Source of the DNA: Christensenellales bacterium | GTDB taxonomy: Bacteria > Bacillota > Clostridia > Christensenellales > UBA1242 | Length of the DNA: 64,000 nt | Reading direction: 5' to 3' | Assembly: GCA_051889995.1 (NCBI GenBank) | Contig: JBJFDL010000003.1 | Location: 112,838 to 176,837 of the forward strand | Part shown: positions 2,404 to 63,068 of the stretch, piece after piece | Position numbering within the stretch: position 1 is the stretch's first letter | How the letters are laid out: each line of letters begins with the position of its first letter | Program-made: the position numbers and the translations under genes | Notes under the pieces: generated by a model | The model's database searches: none | What the model was told of the DNA's origin: nothing | The model's input: the letters and a program-made list of their open reading frames with translations, nothing else

Positions 2404-2432
2404 TTTGCAAAATTAAATTGTTGTGATATAAT
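2404..2432 (+). promoter_or_regulatory. Promoter directing a leaderless transcript of the TrmH-family gene
   Basis: TTTGCA, 17 nt, TGaTATAAT (2424-2432). Only 6 nt (AAAATT) separate the -10 from ATG 2439 and there is no SD. Confidence 0.6.
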
Positions 2433-2438
2433 AAAATT

Positions 2439-3182
2439 ATGATTAAAATTGAAAGCGTGAATAACGAAAAAATTAAAGAAATATTAAAATTAAAACAAAA
2501 AAAATATCGTGATGAAAAAGGCTTAATTTTAGTTGAAGGATATAAAATATTTGAAGAAATTGCTAAAGCTGATTTGAATATTAAAAACATAATTTTAACT
2601 AATGAAGTTTTTGAAAAATTAAATCTTAATAAGTTTTTAGATAAAATAATCATTGTTTCAAGCAAAATTGCTGAAAAATTATCTTTTCAAATGTCATCAA
2701 CTAATTTTTTTGTTGTTGTAGAAAAACCTAAAGAGAAATTTTATGGTGGTAACATTGCAATTTTAGATAATATTCAAGACCCTCAAAATTTAGGGGCAAT
2801 TGTGAGAACTAGTGTTGCTACAAATATTAAAGATATCTACACATTAAATTCGGTGGATGAATATAATGACAAAACTATAAGAGCAAGTATGGGTAATATT
2901 TTTAAGGTAAACATTCATCATATTCAAGTTTGCGATTTGAAAGAAATTTGTAAAGATAAAACAGTTTATTCTGCCAATATGAATGGAGAAAATGTTTTTA
3001 AAATAAGTAAGCCTCAAAATGCTTTTGCTATAATTTTGGGAAATGAGGGTAATGGTGTATCAAAAGAAGTTGAAGAATTTGCAAATAAAGTAATAGCAAT
3101 ACCCATGCAAAATGAAGTGGAAAGTTTAAATGTTGCTGTTAGCTTTTCAATAATCGCATATTACTTAACAAACTTCTCATAA
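2439..3182 (+). CDS. TrmH/SpoU-family RNA 2'-O-methyltransferase (YsgA-like)
   Basis: SpoU motifs DNIQDPQNLGAIVRT, LGNEGNGVS and IPM..EVESLNVAV. Same position after rplT as B. subtilis ysgA. Confidence 0.85.
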   Translation: MIKIESVNNEKIKEILKLKQKKYRDEKGLILVEGYKIFEEIAKADLNIKNIILTNEVFEKLNLNKFLDKIIIVSSKIAEKLSFQMSSTNFFVVVEKPKEKFYGGNIAILDNIQDPQNLGAIVRTSVATNIKDIYTLNSVDEYNDKTIRASMGNIFKVNIHHIQVCDLKEICKDKTVYSANMNGENVFKISKPQNAFAIILGNEGNGVSKEVEEFANKVIAIPMQNEVESLNVAVSFSIIAYYLTNFS

Positions 3183-3198: not shown

Positions 3199-3227
3199 TT
3201 GACAAATAATAGTATAGATATTATAAT
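3199..3227 (+). promoter_or_regulatory. Sigma-A-type promoter of yebC
   Basis: TTGACA (3199-3204), 17 nt, TATAAT (3222-3227). The ORF-track TTG start at 3199 is the -35 box itself. Confidence 0.65.
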
Positions 3228-3252
3228 TAAAAATACGAAAGGGAGAAAAATA

Positions 3253-3975
3253 ATGAGTGGACATAGTAAATTTAATAATATAAAACATACAAAAGAAAAG
3301 ATGGATGCCCAAAGAGGTAAAATTTTTACAAAACTAGGAAAAGAAATTGCAGTTGCAGTTAAAATGGGTGGCAGTGACCCAAATTCAAATCCTAAATTAT
3401 ATAATATCATTAGCAAGGCGAGAAGTAATAATATGCCTAATGACAACATTCAAAGAAGCATAAAAAAAGCAGCTGGTGAACTAGGTGGTGGAAACTATGA
3501 AGAAATCACTTATGAAGGCTATGGAGTTGGCGGTAGTGCTGTTATTGTTAATGTTCTAACCGATAATAAAAATCGTGCTGCAGGTGATATTCGTCATATT
3601 TTTGATAAATGTGGTGGCAGTTTAGGTTCAACTGGTTGTGTTAGTTATTTGTTCGAGAGAAAAGGTGTGTTTGTTATTGAAAAAGACGATAAATTAACAG
3701 AAGACCAACTTTTTGAATGGGCAATTGAAGGTGAGGCAGATGATGTTGTGGATGATGGAGATGTTTTTGAAGTTTATTCACAAACAGATAAATTTAACAA
3801 TGTTAAGGATGTTTTAGAAAGCAAGGGAATTAAATTCTTAAGTGCAGATGTTGCATTTGTTCCATCAAGTTACATTGACCTTGATGAAAAACAACAAGCA
3901 AGTTTTGAAAAAATGATAGATTTATTAGAAAGCAACGATGATGTTCAAGATGTCTATCATAACGTAAATCTTTAA
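3253..3975 (+). CDS. yebC: YebC/PmpR-family DNA-binding regulator
   Basis: MSGHSKFNNIKH..K..D..RGK.FTKL is the family N-terminus. SD AAAGGGAG precedes ATG 3253. Confidence 0.9.
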   Translation: MSGHSKFNNIKHTKEKMDAQRGKIFTKLGKEIAVAVKMGGSDPNSNPKLYNIISKARSNNMPNDNIQRSIKKAAGELGGGNYEEITYEGYGVGGSAVIVNVLTDNKNRAAGDIRHIFDKCGGSLGSTGCVSYLFERKGVFVIEKDDKLTEDQLFEWAIEGEADDVVDDGDVFEVYSQTDKFNNVKDVLESKGIKFLSADVAFVPSSYIDLDEKQQASFEKMIDLLESNDDVQDVYHNVNL

Positions 3976-4029: not shown

Positions 4030-4056
4030 GTAGAATTAAAAGTTCTACTTTTTTTA
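4030..4056 (+). terminator. Rho-independent terminator after yebC
   Basis: GTAGAA / TTCTAC stem followed by T7. Confidence 0.65.
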
Positions 4057-4073
4057 TATATTTTTCAATATAA

Positions 4074-4102
4074 TTGACAAAAATAATTTTATTTAATATA
4101 AT
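4074..4102 (+). promoter_or_regulatory. Consensus promoter directing a leaderless ruvC transcript
   Basis: TTGACA (4074-4079), 17 nt, TATAAT (4097-4102), then 6 nt (TTTACT) and ATG 4109. No SD. Confidence 0.7.
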
Positions 4103-4108
4103 TTTACT

Positions 4109-4600
4109 ATGGTTATTCTTGGTATAGACCCAGGCTATGCAATTATAGGCTATGGCGTTATTGAAAAAATTGGCAATCAAGTTAATTGTCTAGATTATGG
4201 TGTAATAACAACAGATAAAGATATGAATTTTCCTGATAGACTTGTAAAAATAGCAGATGGTATAGATTATCTAATAGAAAAGTATAATCCTGAAAGTTTA
4301 GCAATTGAAGAGTTATTTTTTCAAAATAATGCCAAAACAGCAATTGATGTTGCACAAGCAAGAGGAGTAATTGTTGTCAGAGCAAAGAAAAAGATAGGTA
4401 AATTGTTTGAATATACACCATTACAAATCAAACAAGCTTTAACAGGACAAGGCCGTGCCGATAAAAAACAAGTTCAATATATGGTAAAGGCCATTCTTAA
4501 TTTAAAAGATATTCCAAAGCCAGATGATGCAGCAGATGCATTAGCAGTTGCAATATGTCATAGTCAAACAAATCAAACGTTAGGAAATTTTAGATATTAG
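4109..4600 (+). CDS. ruvC: Holliday junction resolvase RuvC
   Basis: ILGIDPGY, IEELFF and DAADALAVAICH catalytic/acidic motifs. Confidence 0.95.
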   Translation: MVILGIDPGYAIIGYGVIEKIGNQVNCLDYGVITTDKDMNFPDRLVKIADGIDYLIEKYNPESLAIEELFFQNNAKTAIDVAQARGVIVVRAKKKIGKLFEYTPLQIKQALTGQGRADKKQVQYMVKAILNLKDIPKPDDAADALAVAICHSQTNQTLGNFRY

Positions 4601-7357: not shown

Positions 7358-9549
<2,192 letters not shown>

Positions 9550-9601: not shown

Positions 9602-10048
9602 ATGTTTAATATTTTAGCAAGTGAAAATTCAGGTAACTTAACTTTATTAATTATTCTTTTGGTGGCTTGTGCATTAATGTTTGTTTTAAGTTTTTTCAAA
9701 AACAAAAAATATGTTGAAAAACAAAAAGCATTGCAAGATGAACTACAAATTGGTTCAAAAGTTTTAACTAAAACTTTCATTTATGGAACTGTTGAAAAAA
9801 TAACAGACACTACTGATGGCAAAGTTTTATTAATTAAAACTGGCGATGATGACAAATGTGGCTATATTGAAATGAACATTGAAGGCATCTATTCAGTAGA
9901 CACTAAAGAAGAAGTTTTTGACATTGAAGAATTAAATCAAGAATCATCAGAAGCAGAAGAAATAGTAGAAGTTAAAGAAGAAAAAATTGAAGAACCTGTT
10001 AAGGAAGAAAAACCAAAAAAAACAAGAACAAAAAAAGTTAGTGAATAA
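9602..10048 (+). CDS. yajC: Preprotein translocase subunit YajC with acidic/Lys-rich C-terminal extension
   Basis: Single N-terminal TM helix, LQIGSKVLTKTFIYGTVEKI YajC core, then a low-complexity E/K tail. Follows tgt as in other Firmicutes. Confidence 0.8.
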   Translation: MFNILASENSGNLTLLIILLVACALMFVLSFFKNKKYVEKQKALQDELQIGSKVLTKTFIYGTVEKITDTTDGKVLLIKTGDDDKCGYIEMNIEGIYSVDTKEEVFDIEELNQESSEAEEIVEVKEEKIEEPVKEEKPKKTRTKKVSE

Positions 10049-19246: not shown

Positions 19247-19288
19247 TTGCTTCAGTAGATAACAATGTTTTATAAGGATTTAGTTTTT

Positions 19289-20368
19289 ATGAAAAATTAT
19301 AGGTTTAATAAAAGGTCAAAAAAATTAATAATTAATGATAAAACTGGGGTTTGTAATAGAATTTGGAAAGAAACAGTAGAACCTAAACAAGTAAAAGAAC
19401 TTGTGTTAGAAGAAGGCATTGAAAATATTGCAGTAGAATCTTTTAAAAATTGCTATAATTTAGAAAAAGTAAATTTTCCATTAACATTACATCAAATAGG
19501 CGATTTTGCCTTTTATTCTTGTGATTCAATTAAGGAATTAGAAATTCCTAAAAATGTATTTTATTTGGGAACTTCTTCATTTTGTAACTGTAAAAAATTA
19601 GAAAAAGTTTCCTTGCCATCTTCATTAATTAAAATTGATAATGGGGCATTTGCTAGTTGTGAAGCATTAGATAAAGTTGTCATTCCTAAAGGCGTATTAG
19701 AATTAAGTGCTAGCACATTTTATAATTGTGCTAACTTATCATCAATAACTTTACCATCAACCTTAAAAATTATTGGTAATGATGCTTTTTGCAATTGTAA
19801 ATCATTAAAAGAAATTAAATTACCAGAAGAAATTGAAGTTATTAGTGATGGAATGTTCTTTTCATGTGTAAATTTAAAAAGAGTGTCTTTACCAAAGCAC
19901 TTAAAGGCAATAAATAAAAACGCTTTTCGCAATTGCCAATCTTTAAAAGAAATTGTAATACCAGAAGGTGTAACAATCATTGAATATTTTGCGTTTTGTA
20001 GTTGTTATAAATTAGAGAAGATTATTTTACCTTCAACAATTTTAAAAATTAATGATGATGCCTTTTATTCTTGTTCGCTTTTAAAAGAAATTTTAATTCC
20101 AAAATCAATTAAAGAATTTGGTAAAAATGTTTTTGCAGATTGCAATAGTTTGAATAAAATAGTTTTTGAAAAGGGTATTGATAAAAAAATTGTTGAAAAA
20201 ATTAAAGATGAATATCCTAATTTGAAAGTTTGTTATATATCTAAAGATGATGAATATAATGAAAAGCAAATAAACGATGATAAACAAAGATTAGTTAAAA
20301 AATTATGGAATGAAAAAACTAAAAAATTCAAAAAAGATGATGATGAAAAGGATACACTATTTTTTTAA
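19289..20368 (+). CDS. BspA/LRR_5-type leucine-rich repeat protein, paralog B (no signal peptide)
   Basis: About 11 tandem ~23-aa units, each with a conserved Cys (NCYNL, SCDSI, NCKKL ...). C-terminal cap EKGIDKKIVEKIKDEYPNLKV plus a Lys-rich tail. ATG 19289 follows AAGGA; ATG 19265 is an alternative start. Confidence 0.8.
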   Translation: MKNYRFNKRSKKLIINDKTGVCNRIWKETVEPKQVKELVLEEGIENIAVESFKNCYNLEKVNFPLTLHQIGDFAFYSCDSIKELEIPKNVFYLGTSSFCNCKKLEKVSLPSSLIKIDNGAFASCEALDKVVIPKGVLELSASTFYNCANLSSITLPSTLKIIGNDAFCNCKSLKEIKLPEEIEVISDGMFFSCVNLKRVSLPKHLKAINKNAFRNCQSLKEIVIPEGVTIIEYFAFCSCYKLEKIILPSTILKINDDAFYSCSLLKEILIPKSIKEFGKNVFADCNSLNKIVFEKGIDKKIVEKIKDEYPNLKVCYISKDDEYNEKQINDDKQRLVKKLWNEKTKKFKKDDDEKDTLFF

Positions 20369-21495: not shown

Positions 21496-21528
21496 AACCT
21501 TTTGTGCATCTTGCAAAAGGTTTTTTTT
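21496..21528 (+). terminator. Rho-independent terminator
   Basis: AACCTTTTG / CAAAAGGTT stem followed by T8. Confidence 0.8.
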
Positions 21529-21572: not shown

Positions 21573-21601
21573 TTGTAAAAAGGAAATCATTTTGTTATAA
21601 T
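21573..21601 (+). promoter_or_regulatory. Promoter directing a leaderless (or near-leaderless) pcrA transcript
   Basis: TTGTAA, 17 nt, TGtTATAAT (21593-21601), then 6 nt (AAATCT) and ATG 21608. Confidence 0.6.
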
Positions 21602-21607
21602 AAATCT

Positions 21608-25758
<4,151 letters not shown>

Positions 25759-31407: not shown

Positions 31408-31436
31408 TTGACTAAAATGTGGAATGGTAATATAAT
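31408..31436 (+). promoter_or_regulatory. Consensus promoter directing a leaderless transcript of orphan-def-fmt-rlmN
   Basis: TTGACT (31408-31413), 17 nt, TATAAT (31431-31436), then 6 nt (ATTTTT) and GTG 31443. Confidence 0.6.
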
Positions 31437-31442
31437 ATTTTT

Positions 31443-32045
31443 GTGAAAGAAAATGTTATAATTGCGAAAAATGCAAAAAAGGAAGAAATAAAAGCATATT
31501 ACATTTTAAAAGATACGCTTTTTAATAATGCTGAAGTTTTTATTGGCGATAATATTGAAAAAGGTTTACCAGATATTTATACAAGTGACCATGTAATTGG
31601 TGTTGAAGTTACAAGTTGTGAACATCTTGCCCAATTTTTAGCCGAAAATGATTATGAAATGCAAAAAGTAAACATTGGTCGTCAAAACAGAACAAAAAAA
31701 ATTATAGAAGAATATAGCGCACTTTCACTTAAAGATAAAAATTTATTGTTTATTAGTGAATTTAAAAAGTTACTTGAAAAGAAAATAAAAAGAATACCTG
31801 CTTATAAAAGTGTTAAAAACATAAGCTTAATCATTATGTCTGATAACATCAACAAAGAATTTATAAGAAGAGATACGCTTTCAAATTTATATAGAGAACT
31901 CGTAGAAGAATATAATGTTAAATTCGATAATTTGTTTTTGTATTATAATAACACTTTGTATGCAGATGTAAATTATACATTTTTAAAAATGAAAAAAGTT
32001 AAAACTAAAGGAGGAAAATATGGCAATAAGGAATATTGTTTTTAG
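31443..32045 (+). CDS. Hypothetical protein (200 aa) inserted between priA and def
   Basis: Long intact ORF with a GTG start and no SD. Contains GLPDIYTSDHVIGVEVTS, weakly reminiscent of a PD-(D/E)xK core. The 3' end overlaps def by 26 nt. Confidence 0.5.
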   Translation: MKENVIIAKNAKKEEIKAYYILKDTLFNNAEVFIGDNIEKGLPDIYTSDHVIGVEVTSCEHLAQFLAENDYEMQKVNIGRQNRTKKIIEEYSALSLKDKNLLFISEFKKLLEKKIKRIPAYKSVKNISLIIMSDNINKEFIRRDTLSNLYRELVEEYNVKFDNLFLYYNNTLYADVNYTFLKMKKVKTKGGKYGNKEYCF

Positions 32046-38909: not shown

Positions 38910-39143
38910 ATGGAAGAATTAGTAACCTACATTGTTAAGTCTTTGGTAGCAAATAAAGATGATGTTATTGTTGAAAGTGTTAAAGAAAATGAGTCAACAG
39001 TAATCTTAAAAGTAACAGTAAATGAAAAAGATTTAGGAAAAGTTATCGGTAAAAATGGAAAAATTGCAAATGCACTAAGAGCAATTGTAAAAAGCGTTCC
39101 AAACGACAACAATGTTAAATATTTTGTAAAAATTATGGAATAA
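38910..39143 (+). CDS. ylqC: KH-domain RNA-binding protein (YlqC-like)
   Basis: 77 aa, DLGKVIGKNGKIANALRAIV (GxxG KH motif). Follows rpsP. Confidence 0.85.
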   Translation: MEELVTYIVKSLVANKDDVIVESVKENESTVILKVTVNEKDLGKVIGKNGKIANALRAIVKSVPNDNNVKYFVKIME

Positions 39144-39144
39144 A

Positions 39145-39169
39145 ATACTCCTTCGGGAGTGTTTTTTTA
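39145..39169 (+). terminator. Rho-independent terminator after the KH-protein gene
   Basis: ACTCC-TTCG-GGAGT tetraloop hairpin followed by T7. Confidence 0.8.
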
Positions 39170-39388
39170 TTATTGAATTAGATAATACAACTTTAATTTA
39201 CATTGTGTTAAAATGTATATTTTGCTACTGAAAGTTAGTTAAATTAAAAGTTAAGGTAATTTCTCACAAAAATTTATAATTTAGTAAATAAATGCCATTG
39301 GAGACAATAAAACTAAAATCAAAAAGGAGATTAAATGGCGTATGTTTAAAATCTTTTAATAAAAAAATGAAAAAATGCTTTAATAAGT

Positions 39389-39417
39389 GATACAAAATCT
39401 TTTGTTTGTGATATAAT
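39389..39417 (+). promoter_or_regulatory. Extended -10 promoter directing a leaderless rimM-trmD transcript
   Basis: TGaTATAAT (39409-39417), then 7 nt (GAGTTGT) and ATG 39425. The ORF-track ATG 39416 lies inside the -10 box. Confidence 0.6.
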
Positions 39418-39424
39418 GAGTTGT

Positions 39425-39919
39425 ATGATAGAGAAAATAGAATTTGGTAAAGTGATAAACACTAGAGGATTAGATGGCACAATAAAAGTGCAAACTAGCA
39501 GTGAGAAAATGTCGTTTAAAAATTTAAAAAATGTTTATTTAGATGACACTTTATTTAATTTGGAAAAAATCACGCAGGCAGGTTCATTTTTTTACATTCG
39601 TTTAAAGGAAATAACAACTGTTGAAAGTGCTCAAAAATTAAAAAACAAAATCTTGTATATTAATAGGGAAAATATTGTTTTAAACAAAAATGAATATTTA
39701 GTTTGTGATATGCTTGGATTAGATGTTGTTAGTGATTTAGATAAATATTATGGTAAAATTATAGACATAACAAATTATGGCGCTCAAGATGTTTATACCA
39801 TTAAAAATGGAAAAGAAGAACATTCATTCTGCTTGATTGATGGCATTATTATTAAAGTGGATTTTGATGCAAATAAAGTTATTTTAAATGATAAAATATT
39901 GAATGAGGTTATGTTATGA
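39425..39919 (+). CDS. rimM: 16S rRNA processing protein RimM
   Basis: MIEKIEFGKVINTRGLDGTIKV is a typical RimM N-terminus. PRC-barrel C-terminus. Confidence 0.88.
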   Translation: MIEKIEFGKVINTRGLDGTIKVQTSSEKMSFKNLKNVYLDDTLFNLEKITQAGSFFYIRLKEITTVESAQKLKNKILYINRENIVLNKNEYLVCDMLGLDVVSDLDKYYGKIIDITNYGAQDVYTIKNGKEEHSFCLIDGIIIKVDFDANKVILNDKILNEVML

Positions 39920-47065: not shown

Positions 47066-47279
47066 AATAGTTTTCACCTCCTATAACATTGTAAAGAAAA
47101 TTTGATAAAATTTTTTAAATTTTATGGTTAAGGTCTTTTCTTTACAATTTTAGTTTTAGTTTTTTTTCGACTTTTTATTACATTTTTTATTGGTAATAAA
47201 ATCCAAATAAATAATGATTAAATATCAATTAAATTTTAAATATCTTCATATTTTATAAAAATATTAAATAGAATAAAGT

Positions 47280-47528
47280 ATGCAAGAAAAAAAGATTATT
47301 TTGTCGCAACTTAAAATTGGGCAATCTGCCTACGTTGTTGGAATTACTGGTAATTTAAAGGTTAAGACCAGACTTATGGAGTTAGGTTTTTCTAAGGGGA
47401 CACTTGTTAGAATTTTAAATATTTCAAGTTTAAAAAAGAGTTTTTTAATTGAAATTCGTGGTTTTGTTCTGGCATTAAGGGAAAGTGCTGTCAATATGAT
47501 TGAAGTAATTTTAAGCAAGGAGAGTTAA
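47280..47528 (+). CDS. feoA: Ferrous iron transport protein A
   Basis: 82 aa SH3-like FeoA: L..L..G....V....G......RL.ELGF..G. Precedes feoB. Confidence 0.88.
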   Translation: MQEKKIILSQLKIGQSAYVVGITGNLKVKTRLMELGFSKGTLVRILNISSLKKSFLIEIRGFVLALRESAVNMIEVILSKES

Positions 47529-49648: not shown

Positions 49649-49672
49649 AGATAAATATTCATACACTAAAGT

Positions 49673-50929
49673 ATGAGTAAATATCAAATTTTTGGACAAA
49701 GAAAATTAGAGGGTCAAATTAGTGTAAAATCTAGCAAAAATGCGTCCCTGCCAATTTTAGCAGGGGCTATTTTATGCAACAAAGAAGTTGTGTTAAATAA
49801 TTTACCATTGTTTACAGATATTGAAAATATGGAAAAAATATTAACTCATATTGGTTGCAAAATACGAAGAGTTGATGACAAGACGATTATAAATACCGAA
49901 AATATAAATAATACATATATTCCAAATGAATTAACTAAAGAAATTCGTTCGTCAATATTTATGTTAGGGCCAATGCTTACAAAAATGAAAAGGGCAAAAA
50001 TTGCTTTTCCAGGTGGGTGTAATATTGGCAACAGACCTATAGACTTACATCTTAAAGGACTAAAAGCACTAAATGTTGAAATAAAAGAAGAGCACGGATA
50101 TTTAATTTGCAATGGTGAAAATATGCACGGAAGTGAAATTATACTTGATTTCCCAAGCGTTGGTGCAACTGAAAACTTAATGATGGCAGGAGTTGGTGCA
50201 AAGGGTAAAACAATAATTAGAAATTGTGCAAGAGAACCTGAAATTGTAGATTTACAAAATTTTCTTAAAAAAATGGGTGCAAAAATTAAGGGCGCTGGAA
50301 CGGAAACAATTATTGTTGAAAAAAGTGACTTAACAAAAATGAACGAAATTTCTTATACTCCCATTCCAGATAGAATAATTGCAGGGACTTATTTGCTTGC
50401 TGTTGCTAGCTGTGGGGGGAAAGTCGAAATTTGTAATGTTTTACCTAAACATTTACACAGTTTATTAAATAAATTACAAAATACTGCTTGCAATTTGCAG
50501 ATAAAAAATGATAAAATACTAATAGAAGTTGGTTCTAAGCTAAATGGATTTAATATTGAAACAATGCCATATCCCGGTTTTCCAACTGATTTACAACCAC
50601 AATTAGTTAGTTTTTTAACAACAGCTAAAGGAACTAATATTGTTACTGAAAATTTATTTGAGGGGCGTTTTAAGCATATTCCTGAATTAATTAAAATGGG
50701 CGCAAATGTTGTTGTTAAAGACAAAACGGCAATTATTATGGGAGTAGAAAGTTTAAGTGGTGCAGAAGTTTCTGCGACTGATTTAAGGGCAGGAGCAGGA
50801 TTAGTAATTGCAGGATTAACAGCAAAAGGCTATACAATTGTCGATAATATTCATCATATTAATCGTGGATATGAAAATTTAATGGATGAACTGAACTCAA
50901 TTAATGCAAATATAAAGCTTGTGGAGTGA
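49673..50929 (+). CDS. murA: UDP-N-acetylglucosamine 1-carboxyvinyltransferase
   Basis: KSSKNASLPILAGA, active-site PGGCNIGNRPIDLHL, and RGYENL at the C-terminus. Ends in TGA. Confidence 0.95.
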   Translation: MSKYQIFGQRKLEGQISVKSSKNASLPILAGAILCNKEVVLNNLPLFTDIENMEKILTHIGCKIRRVDDKTIINTENINNTYIPNELTKEIRSSIFMLGPMLTKMKRAKIAFPGGCNIGNRPIDLHLKGLKALNVEIKEEHGYLICNGENMHGSEIILDFPSVGATENLMMAGVGAKGKTIIRNCAREPEIVDLQNFLKKMGAKIKGAGTETIIVEKSDLTKMNEISYTPIPDRIIAGTYLLAVASCGGKVEICNVLPKHLHSLLNKLQNTACNLQIKNDKILIEVGSKLNGFNIETMPYPGFPTDLQPQLVSFLTTAKGTNIVTENLFEGRFKHIPELIKMGANVVVKDKTAIIMGVESLSGAEVSATDLRAGAGLVIAGLTAKGYTIVDNIHHINRGYENLMDELNSINANIKLVE

Positions 50930-61235: not shown

Positions 61236-61264
61236 TTGCATTTTTTGTAGAATATATATATAAT
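61236..61264 (+). promoter_or_regulatory. Promoter directing a leaderless lepA transcript
   Basis: TTGCAT (61236-61241), 17 nt, TATAAT (61259-61264), then 7 nt (ACAAAAT) and ATG 61272. No SD. Confidence 0.6.
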
Positions 61265-61271
61265 ACAAAAT

Positions 61272-63068
61272 ATGAATGATTATCAAAAGTATATAAGAAA
61301 TTTTTGTATTGTTGCTCATATTGACCACGGTAAAAGCACTCTAGCTGATAGATTGCTTGAATTTACAGGAACGGTTAATAAAAGAGATATGGAAAGTCAA
61401 CTTTTAGATAGTATGGAACTTGAGAAAGAAAGAGGAATTACTATTAAACTTGCAACTACAAAAATGAACTATGTAAAAGATGGAATAAATTATGAATTAA
61501 ATTTAATAGACACTCCAGGGCATGTCGATTTTACTTATGAAGTTTCACGTTCATTGGCAGCCTGTGAAGGAGCAATATTAATTGTTGATGCATCGCAAGG
61601 CGTTGAAGCACAAACACTTGCTAACCTATATTTGGCGTTAGAAAACAACTTAGAAATTTTACCTGTTATTAACAAGATTGACTTGCCAAGTGCAGACATC
61701 GAAAACACTAAAAAGGAAATTGAAGAAATAATTGGATTACCTAGTGAAATTGCACCACAAATTAGTGCAAAAGAAGGCACAAATATTAATCAGGTTTTAG
61801 ATGCTATAATAGATACATTTCCTGCGCCTAGTGGAGATATTAATAAGCCTTTGAAAGCATTAATCTTTGATAGTTTTTATGATGCTTATAAGGGAGCTGT
61901 ATGTTTAATAAGAATAGTTGATGGAGTCCTTAAAAGTGGCGATAAAATTCTTATGATGAGTAGTAATAAAACTTTTGACAGTGTTGAAGTTGGAATTTTT
62001 AATCCTAAAATGGTTTCTACTGGAATATTAAGAGCTGGCGAAGTTGGATATGTAACGGCAAGTATTAAGAATGTAACTGATACAAAAGTTGGTGACACAA
62101 TAACTTTGTGTGATAATCCAACCGAAAAACCATTAGATGGCTATAAAGAAGTGCAACCAGTTGTATTTTGTGGAATTTTTCCATCAGTTGGAGATAAATA
62201 TCAAGAGTTAAAAGACTGCTTGGAAAAACTAAAATTAAGTGATGCATCGCTATTTTATGAACCTGAAAGTTCAAAGGCGTTAGGTTTTGGTTTTAGATGT
62301 GGATTCTTAGGTCTGCTTCATATGGAAATCATAACTGAAAGAATAGAAAGAGAATTTAATCTTGAAATAATTACAACTGCACCAAGTGTTAATTATCTCG
62401 TTCATAAGACAAATGGCGAAGTTTTGGAAATTTCGAATCCAACAAATCTTCCTAAAATGCAAGAAATTGACTACATGGAAGAACCTATTTGTAAACTGAC
62501 AGTTTACACACCTCCAGAATATCTTGGTTCAATAATGGATTTATGTAACGAAAAACGTGGTATACAACTAGATATTAACTACATTGACCCTAAAAGAGTA
62601 GAAATAACATACGAAATACCACTAAATGAAGTTATTTATGATTTTTTTGATAGCTTAAAGAGCAGAACAAGGGGTTACGCCAGTTTAGATTATGAAATTA
62701 TTGGTTACAAAAAAAGTAATCTTGTTAAACTAGATATTTTACTAAACGGCGAAAGCTGTGATGCACTTTCAATTATTGTGCATAATGAATCTGCATACAA
62801 AAGAGGAAAGGCGATTACAGAAAAATTGAAAGAAATTATACCAAGGCAACTTTTTGAAATTCCAGTTCAAGCAACAATTGGAAGTAAAGTTATAGCAAGA
62901 GAAACTATTAAAGCATTACGCAAAGATGTTTTAAGTAAATGTTACGGTGGTGATATCACAAGAAAAAGAAAATTACTAGAAAAACAAAAAGAAGGTAAAA
63001 AACGTATGCGTCAAGTTGGTTCAGTTCAAATACCAAGTGAAGCATTTATAAGTATTTTAAAGATTTAA
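61272..63068 (+). CDS. lepA: Elongation factor 4 (LepA)
   Basis: [25 protein letters not shown] and NKIDL motifs. LepA-specific C-terminal domain ending ..[18 protein letters not shown]. Confidence 0.97.

Follow-up and report, generated by a model that had tools for sequence, protein, structure and literature searches.

Promoter spacing at six genes of a low-GC Christensenellales genome points to leaderless mRNAs

Introduction

The classical leaderless mRNAs of E. coli, such as those of lambda cI and Tn1721 tetR, start at the A of the AUG, carry no Shine-Dalgarno (SD) sequence, and come from isolated phage and transposon genes that are poorly translated. On a genomic scale, GeneMarkS-2 distinguishes a group C of genomes in which a Pribnow box lies 6-8 nucleotides (nt) from first genes that lack a ribosome-binding site, and which are described by a dual SD/leaderless model (PMC6028130). 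Group C comprises 90% of Actinobacteria but only 36 of 1064 Firmicutes genomes, and concerns 25-50% of operons (PMC6028130). A related class, the TA-led genes, is defined by TANNNT about 10-12 base pairs (bp) upstream of the start and was checked by dinucleotide shuffles (Zheng et al., 2011; PMC3160421). Among 209 Firmicutes genomes, 56 had this signal, Lactococcus lactis being one of them, and it marked 4.2% of genes on average (range 2.4-16.6) (PMC3160421). For mycobacteria, transcription start site mapping, ribosome profiling and reporters have shown that leaderless initiation needs a 5' ATG or GTG and nothing more (Shell et al., 2015; PMC4633059). Within the Clostridia, C. difficile has only 15 potentially leaderless genes genome-wide, and 5' untranslated regions (UTRs) of 20-40 nt are common (PMC7438776). 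Here we analyse a 64-kb stretch of DNA, referred to as the window, from an uncultured gut member of the Christensenellales (Clostridia; GenBank assembly GCA_051889995.1, contig JBJFDL010000003.1, positions 112,838 to 176,837). Six of its genes, among them ruvC, pcrA, rimM and lepA, carry a -10 promoter box so close to the start codon that their mRNAs are likely to begin with the AUG or GUG itself. The architecture is already described in the literature and is rare in Firmicutes, hence no new mechanism is proposed. A literature search for leaderless initiation in Christensenellales found nothing relevant.

Results

Six start codons lie six or seven nucleotides behind a perfect -10 box

We use leaderless-type for an arrangement in which 6-8 nt lie between a Pribnow box and the start (after PMC6028130) and in which the 5' codon is ATG or GTG (after PMC4633059). 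The gap is the number of nt between the end of the -10 box and the start codon. All six genes have a perfect TATAAT, with a gap of 6 in four and of 7 in two of them. Five start with ATG and one with GTG, and neither TTG nor CTG is used. Every box, gap and start codon named in the initial annotation was recovered at exactly the same position. The promoters, coding sequences and preceding terminators are:

2404..2432 (+), promoter of the TrmH/RlmB-family methyltransferase gene: TTTGCA with N17 or TTGCAA with N16, TG at 2424-2425, TATAAT at 2427-2432
2439..3182 (+), coding sequence of the SpoU/TrmH-family rRNA/tRNA methyltransferase (TrmH): predicted leaderless ATG 2439, gap 6
4030..4055 (+), weak, terminator-like hairpin (GTAGAA/TTCTAC) with a T7 run upstream of ruvC and after yebC, read directly
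4074..4102 (+), ruvC promoter: TTGACA 4074-4079, N17, TATAAT 4097-4102, 12/12 consensus
4109..4600 (+), ruvC coding sequence: ATG 4109, whose A is the 7th base past the -10 box and the predicted transcription start
21496..21522 (+), intrinsic terminator of the gene before pcrA: 11-bp stem and T run, 51 nt before the pcrA -35
21573..21601 (+), pcrA promoter: TTGTAA, N17, TGtTATAAT with the -10 at 21596-21601
21608..23803 (+), pcrA coding sequence: predicted leaderless ATG 21608
31408..31436 (+), promoter of an orphan gene: TTGACT, N17, TATAAT 31431-31436, 11/12 consensus
31443..32045 (+), coding sequence of the orphan, 200 residues, between priA and def: predicted leaderless GTG 31443, gap 6
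39142..39165 (+), intrinsic terminator after khpA
39409..39417 (+), extended -10 of rimM: TGaTATAAT, box 39412-39417
39425..39919 (+), rimM coding sequence: predicted leaderless ATG 39425, gap 7
61236..61264 (+), lepA promoter: TTGCAT, N17, TATAAT 61259-61264; weak -35, below the calling level of the scan
61272..63068 (+), lepA (EF4) coding sequence: predicted leaderless ATG 61272, gap 7

Transcription normally begins with a purine that follows the last T of the -10 hexamer at a distance of 7-8 nt, and a gap of 6 or 7 thus puts it on the first base of the start codon, A or G. In each of the six genes this purine is the 7th or 8th base, which is the optimum. The statement of the initial annotation that most of the boxes are TGn-extended and/or paired with a -35 also holds. 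A -35 lies at N17 for ruvC, pcrA and the orphan, at N17 or N16 for TrmH and, in weak form, at N17 for lepA, while rimM has the TGn extension only. Judged as sigma-70-type promoters, pcrA and TrmH match 10/12 consensus positions and have TGn in addition, next to the 12/12 of ruvC and the 11/12 of the orphan. The ruvC promoter is one of only two 12/12 sites between positions 2000 and 4700. Contigs with an identical RuvC were found in several Logan assemblies of sequencing runs, and in six contigs of the same species the ruvC promoter is identical. Runs that yielded DNA contigs of the species are SRR23253268, SRR27108386 and SRR30616814.

SD sequences were scored as the energy of the duplex with the anti-SD over a 20-nt stretch upstream. 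In five genes this energy is between +2.9 (ruvC) and -2.2 kcal/mol, and at the orphan it is -5.2 kcal/mol, but the stretch concerned is promoter throughout, running from the spacer across the -10 box into the first bases of the gap. The other genes of the window mostly reach -5.5 kcal/mol or lower, and the claimed absence of SD sequences at the six genes is borne out. Scans of the window with Rfam at gathering thresholds and for tRNAs gave no matches, so no riboswitch or RNA leader accounts for the starts without SD.

All six genes head transcription units, with upstream gaps of 82-281 nt or a divergent neighbour. Terminators or hairpins lie directly upstream of ruvC, pcrA, rimM and the orphan and leave 50-260 nt for any other promoter; those before ruvC and the orphan are AT-rich hairpins with T runs. 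The hairpin at 4030..4055 separates ruvC from the upstream transcription unit. It was missed by the terminator scan because its stem has fewer than three GC pairs, and a clearer hairpin stands at the same place in the related contig L018. With a terminator after khpA, rpsP-khpA and rimM-trmD do not simply form one transcript. An observation in the 281-nt spacer between this terminator and the rimM promoter is a four-codon open reading frame (ORF; ATG GCG TAT GTT TAA, 39336-39350) with the strong SD AAAGGAG 5 nt upstream; it is a relic or else a small ORF with a regulatory role. The corresponding spacer in relatives is far shorter, 83-243 nt.

Start codons are taken as fixed because of family profiles and orthologue N-termini of equal length. 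RuvC residues 1-157 align with profile positions 1-157 including the required N-terminal motif MxILGID, and no other in-frame start occurs within its first 30 codons. For lepA (profile score 980 bits), a further in-frame start codon comes only 27 codons later. Alignment with the RimM profile begins at residue 6, and position 4 of the PcrA profile aligns with residue 8; LepA, RimM and PcrA begin 2-5 residues ahead of the first position of their profile. Orthologous RimM N-termini are identical in length, and the TrmH N-terminus is as long as in L019 and L020, where the orthologue is SD-led. The initial annotation had regarded all six starts as backed by N-terminal homology. Family profiles back those of ruvC, lepA, rimM and pcrA; the orphan protein matched no NCBIfam or Pfam family. 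The orphan overlaps the start of def, which has the SD AAAGGAGG, by 26 nt. A homologue of 195 residues with an ATG start is found at the same place in L015, and in L016 and L017 the gene is absent, with unrelated minus-strand genes at the site.

Alternative placements were rejected. For rimM, the longest ORF opens at an in-frame ATG (39416) that the -10 box itself forms, and this ATG is not the start. Downstream in-frame starts served by an SD were considered for pcrA and TrmH and rejected on the lengths of orthologous N-termini. In addition, the stretch of the L015 pcrA from the leaderless ATG to the conserved LNEMQ motif holds no further in-frame start codon.

The spacing is in excess over chance

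As a control, the 60-nt upstream regions of 65 window genes were shuffled 5000 times with dinucleotides preserved. TATAAT at a gap of 6 or 7 occurs at six of the 65 genes against 0.29 expected; the maximum among the shuffles was four, and none of the 5000 reached six. For the looser TAnAAT the observed count was reached in 3 of 5000 shuffles. Of the 17 perfect boxes located up to 60 nt upstream of starts, six have a gap of 6 or 7 (binomial P = 2e-5 against a uniform position). A scan that does not depend on gene calls took all 152 TATAAT of the window on both strands, 111 of which lie inside genes, and recorded by gap the start codons that open an ORF of 60 codons or more. The counts peak with four cases at gap 6 and three at gap 7, one of the latter being an internal TTG, whereas nearly all other gaps have 0-2 cases and gap 34 has four. 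The comparison with shuffled sequence that the initial annotation had suggested therefore came out in its favour within the window. The enrichment evidence as a whole spans the window and about 190 kb of DNA from relatives.

Close relatives keep the spacing and distant relatives have SD leaders

Orthologous loci were collected by protein searches followed by contig look-ups. We refer to L012, L013, L015-L018 and L101 as the close clade (28-35% GC; identity to the window 85-89% for LepA, 65-73% for PriA and 79-83% for RuvC). All 12 orthologues in the close clade keep a -10 box (at least 5/6 matches) 5-7 nt from an in-frame ATG or GTG:

lepA, L012 and L013, gap 6 in both: TTGC-type -35 at N17 and TATAAT-N6-ATG
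pcrA, L015 gap 6, L016 gap 7, L017 gap 6: extended -10 kept
orphan, L015: TTGACT-N17-TATAAT-N6-ATG
rimM, L015 gap 5, L016 TAAAAT with gap 6, L017 gap 7: TGn and -10 kept
ruvC, L018: TTGACT-N17-TATAAT-N6-ATG; L101: the same with GTG
TrmH, L018, gap 6: TATAAT-N6-ATG

Apart from the GTG of ruvC in L101, all orthologue start codons are ATG. The 5-7 bases of the gap are not conserved, as seen for pcrA with aaatct, aaagaa, atttccc and agcatc. Ungapped identity of the upstream regions is only about 0.3-0.6; further upstream it is about 0.3-0.5, close to what unrelated AT-rich DNA would give. The N-terminal residues also vary. Thus, the geometry is conserved and the sequence is not.

Leaders with an SD stand at these genes in all six cases examined among more distant relatives:

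lepA, L014: TATAAT, then 23 nt including GGGAG
ruvC, L102: TTGACT-N17-TAACAT, then a 30-nt leader with AAGAGGTG
ruvC, L019: SD AAGGA; L020: SD GGAG
TrmH, L019: SD AAGGAGG; L020: SD GAAGGG

A LepA search in metagenomes returned no loci of the close clade, and its matches served as outgroup. A strong SD is present in 57 of these 77 diverse lepA loci (58-69% identity), and a -10-like box at gap 5-8 in only two. In one of the outgroup loci (L075, about 2980-3003; about 60% identity) lepA has TGnTAGAAT-N7-ATG and no SD, and it may be independently leaderless in another lineage. The box arrangement occurs in one of 60 genes of the distant relatives. Far outgroups (L007-L011), which were obtained via PriA at 28-41% identity and include Paenibacillus, Oenococcus, Ligilactobacillus and Bacteroidota, served as negative control and have it in none of 100 genes (gap 5-8). 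Non-orthologous genes with the box were seen in relatives at L012(-) 8169, L017(-) 13905 and L014 6975. Since distant relatives and outgroups have SD leaders, the arrangement is derived in this clade; it appears that the promoter stayed and the leader was lost.

Automatic gene calls are affected by the arrangement. The L013 lepA is called 18 nt downstream of its TATAAT-N6-ATG (9983-10001), and the L017 pcrA is called at an ATG within the promoter, 18 nt too far upstream (2379-2397).

Strong promoters fall into two distance classes

Seven of the eight TTGAC[AT]-N16-18-TATAAT sites in the window are intergenic, though intergenic DNA makes up only 9%. The seven lie directly upstream of genes on the + strand, at gaps of 6, 6, 16, 25, 26, 29 and 50. 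Intergenic TGnTATAAT sites number six and have gaps of 6, 6, 7, 20, 22 and 23. The strongest intergenic promoters are therefore bimodal: they stand either 6-7 nt from a start without SD or 16-50 nt from a start that mostly has an SD. No strong promoter in the window has a gap of 8-13, at which the leader would be too short for an SD. Counting as candidate first genes those with an upstream gap of at least 50 nt or a divergent neighbour (n = 32), the leaderless-type arrangement is present in six (19%). Downstream genes of operons have ordinary SDs, namely ruvA (AGAGGG), ruvB, ligA, def and trmD. An instructive contrast is yebC, whose 12/12 promoter TTGACA-N17-TATAAT is followed by 25 nt including the SD AAGGGAG and by ATG 3253 (3199-3255). 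The yebC promoter lies 900 nt before that of ruvC, and the longest yebC ORF begins at the TTG of the -35 hexamer. The proposal of the initial annotation that two modes of initiation operate side by side agrees with this bimodal distribution of promoter distances with and without SD.

Further candidates and neighbouring features

Two genes had been named as weaker candidates with a gap of 5 nt:

47245..47282 (+), feoA: TTCATA, N18, TAGAAT 47269-47274, 5 nt, ATG 47280, no SD
49662..49675 (+), murA: TACACT, 5 nt, ATG 49673, located 24 nt past the feoB stop, without an acceptable -35

The described architecture is present at both genes, while the promoter candidate of murA is poorly supported, as a usable -35 is missing. 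In FeoA the domain covers residues 8-76. A further leaderless case at feoA is plausible because a gap of 5 occurs among conserved orthologues (rimM in L015, engB in L018). The murA start, which is fixed by the MurA profile (1-417) and has no SD, is a doubtful leaderless case and may depend on coupling to the translation of feoB.

The left edge of the window cuts the gene of the GTPase EngB (ysxC), whose promoter and start region (L001 5660-5712) lies about 185 nt before position 1. In this same-species contig engB has TTGACA-N16-TATACT-N6-ATG and no SD, and the L018 orthologue has TGaTATAAT-N5-ATG, so that engB is a probable further leaderless gene just outside the window.

The infC gene seems to start at a non-canonical ATT (about 1105/1108), 6 nt past the SD AAGGGGG (1092-1150). 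The conserved N-terminus of initiation factor 3 (IF3), IKELSINEEI, is encoded upstream of the first ATG, GTG or TTG of the infC ORF (GTG 1150). ATT is the classical autoregulated start of infC. In E. coli, IF3 is also known as a factor that selects against leaderless mRNAs.

The genes of the window lie almost all on the + strand and were read with the standard code. Their content, established by profile and protein searches, is typical of Clostridia, with the following groups:

infC-rpmI-rplT
ruvCAB-queA-tgt-yajC-secDF-recJ
pcrA-ligA-gatCAB-rpoZ-priA
def-fmt
ffh-rpsP-khpA
rimM-trmD
feoAB-murA
ftsAZ
spoIIGA-sigE-sigG
lepA

Two genes encode BspA-type leucine-rich-repeat (LRR_5) proteins (7358-8398 and 19265-20368). 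The gene at 7358-8398 forms an insertion between queA and tgt, a place where L018, L019 and L020 lack it, and the gene at 19265-20368 has neither an SD nor a nearby -10 box.

Discussion

The data suggest that, at six genes of a 27% GC member of the Clostridia, a housekeeping-sigma (SigA/sigma-70-type) promoter would place the transcription start on the first base (A or G) of the start codon. Such an mRNA would have no 5' UTR and no SD, and the ribosome with initiator tRNA would bind the 5'-terminal AUG or GUG directly, as in the known leaderless pathway. Downstream genes of the operons and other first genes, with promoters 16-50 nt upstream, would use SD-dependent initiation. We consider it likely that the mRNAs of the six genes are leaderless. 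The transcription start, a predicted position at each gene, and translation from the 5'-terminal codon are both deduced from sequence. The excess over shuffled sequence, the missing SDs and the conserved spacing in 12 of 12 orthologues lend good support to this deduction, which had been put forward by the initial annotation.

Several observations point the other way. The -35 of rimM is poor, leaving TGn as its only additional SigA-type element, and the -35 of lepA matches in just 3/6 positions and comes without TGn, although a TTGC hexamer is kept at N17 in L012 and L013. A second in-frame ATG of pcrA, at +12 (21620) after GGGAAA, could serve a very short leader, and it may be an additional start. 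One of the six starts is a GTG, which is an efficient leaderless initiator in mycobacteria and a poor one in E. coli (PMC4633059). Predicted folding of the first 45 nt does not distinguish the six mRNAs (mean -3.2) from other genes (mean -2.8, standard deviation 2.3). The loci of relatives were picked around these same genes, which biases the frequency in the clade upward, and leaderless genes are few in experimentally studied Clostridia such as C. difficile.

Chance was an obvious alternative, as TATAAT is frequent at 27% GC, mostly inside genes, and some of the copies will land 6-7 nt before starts; for TAnAAT a few shuffles do reach the observed number. Perfect boxes, however, number six against 0.29 expected, a count that none of the shuffles reached, they are accompanied by a -35 at N17 or by TGn, and they recur in every close orthologue but hardly in distant relatives or far outgroups, so that chance is effectively refuted by these tests. 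Equally hard to sustain is the idea that the start codons are mis-assigned and that the true starts, with ordinary ribosome-binding sites, lie downstream or at non-canonical codons upstream. Possible downstream codons exist in pcrA (the ATG at +12) and TrmH (a GTG at +18), infC seems to use an ATT in the same window, and no family profile fixes the start of the orphan. Yet RuvC aligns from its first residue and needs its N-terminal motif, ruvC and lepA offer no other start over 27-30 codons, orthologous N-termini are equal in length even where they are SD-led (L019, L020), and any in-frame extension upstream would enter the promoter. A further thought is that TATAAT is no promoter and that it acts in the RNA, where its A/U-rich sequence would enhance translation of an mRNA with a leader. 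A/U-rich upstream sequences can boost SD-independent initiation in some bacteria, but here the conserved feature is TATAAT together with TGn or with a TTGAC-type hexamer exactly 17 nt upstream, which is the geometry of a DNA promoter, and the same motif is found 16-50 nt from other genes that then have an SD. This makes the enhancer very improbable.

A somewhat more serious, still unlikely, alternative accepts the promoters as real but assumes that transcription starts 1-3 nt off the A of the start codon and that the protein is made from read-through or from a weaker promoter upstream, on an SD-less, A/U-rich leader. The choice of start site generally ranges about 6-9 nt past the -10, and the orthologues include gaps of 5, 6 and 7. 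The ruvC hairpin is weak, a TAGAAT upstream of lepA would yield a leader of about 13 nt, and some genes of the window manage with neither an SD nor a nearby box (19265, 35538(-) and 42677). Against this stand the purine at the optimal position in all six genes, the strong terminators ahead of pcrA and rimM, and the finding that relatives possessing a leader possess an SD too. Moreover, the spacing of 5-7 nt is kept in 12 of 12 orthologues while the bases of the gap drift, for which a promoter with an untranslated product offers no explanation. We therefore favour leaderless mRNAs that begin at the start codon.

A wider proposal, to which we give even odds, is that an uncultured, low-GC (27-32%), gut-dwelling Christensenellales-like clade has independently become group C-type, with about one fifth of its units (among them ruvC, pcrA, lepA, rimM-trmD, the rRNA methyltransferase and engB) converted from short SD leaders by loss of the leader. 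If true, ribosomes of this clade would translate a 5'-terminal AUG or GUG efficiently, as in Actinobacteria and Deinococcus, and the switch from SD to leaderless could be dated between sister lineages (about 75-79% identity in RuvC and about 77-85% in LepA). Orthologue pairs from neighbouring lineages that differ only in the SD leader would then offer a natural comparison of how and why the mode of initiation switches. For annotation it matters that gene callers expecting an SD misplace starts in metagenome-assembled genomes of this clade, as seen with lepA in L013, pcrA in L017 and the longest rimM ORF of the window. The six genes also add to the Firmicutes a lineage with apparently common leaderless initiation at conserved housekeeping genes.

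This last point sets the window apart from lambda cI and Tn1721 tetR of E. coli, since conserved housekeeping genes are concerned here. With C. difficile the window shares the affiliation to Clostridia, SigA promoters and similarly short leaders at SD-led genes, but it holds six candidates in 64 kb compared to 15 in a genome. Leaderless status is kept in about 73% of mycobacterial orthologues (PMC4633059) and in 12 of 12 in the close clade; the mycobacterial cases were demonstrated in a high-GC actinobacterium, whereas the present ones are predicted from sequence. Compared to the mean of 4.2% in TA-led Firmicutes, the arrangement concerns about 9% of genes (6/65) in the window, a small and possibly unrepresentative sample. 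With group C the window has in common the spacing of the box, the lack of a ribosome-binding site behind it and SDs at internal and remaining first genes, here with six of 32 first genes being leaderless-type against the 25-50% of operons given for group C. Group C is found mainly in Actinobacteria and Deinococcus-Thermus, while the host here belongs to the Clostridia with 27% GC. Finally, the -10 box is a full TATAAT that is often TGn-extended, in place of the TAnnnT of high-GC genomes.

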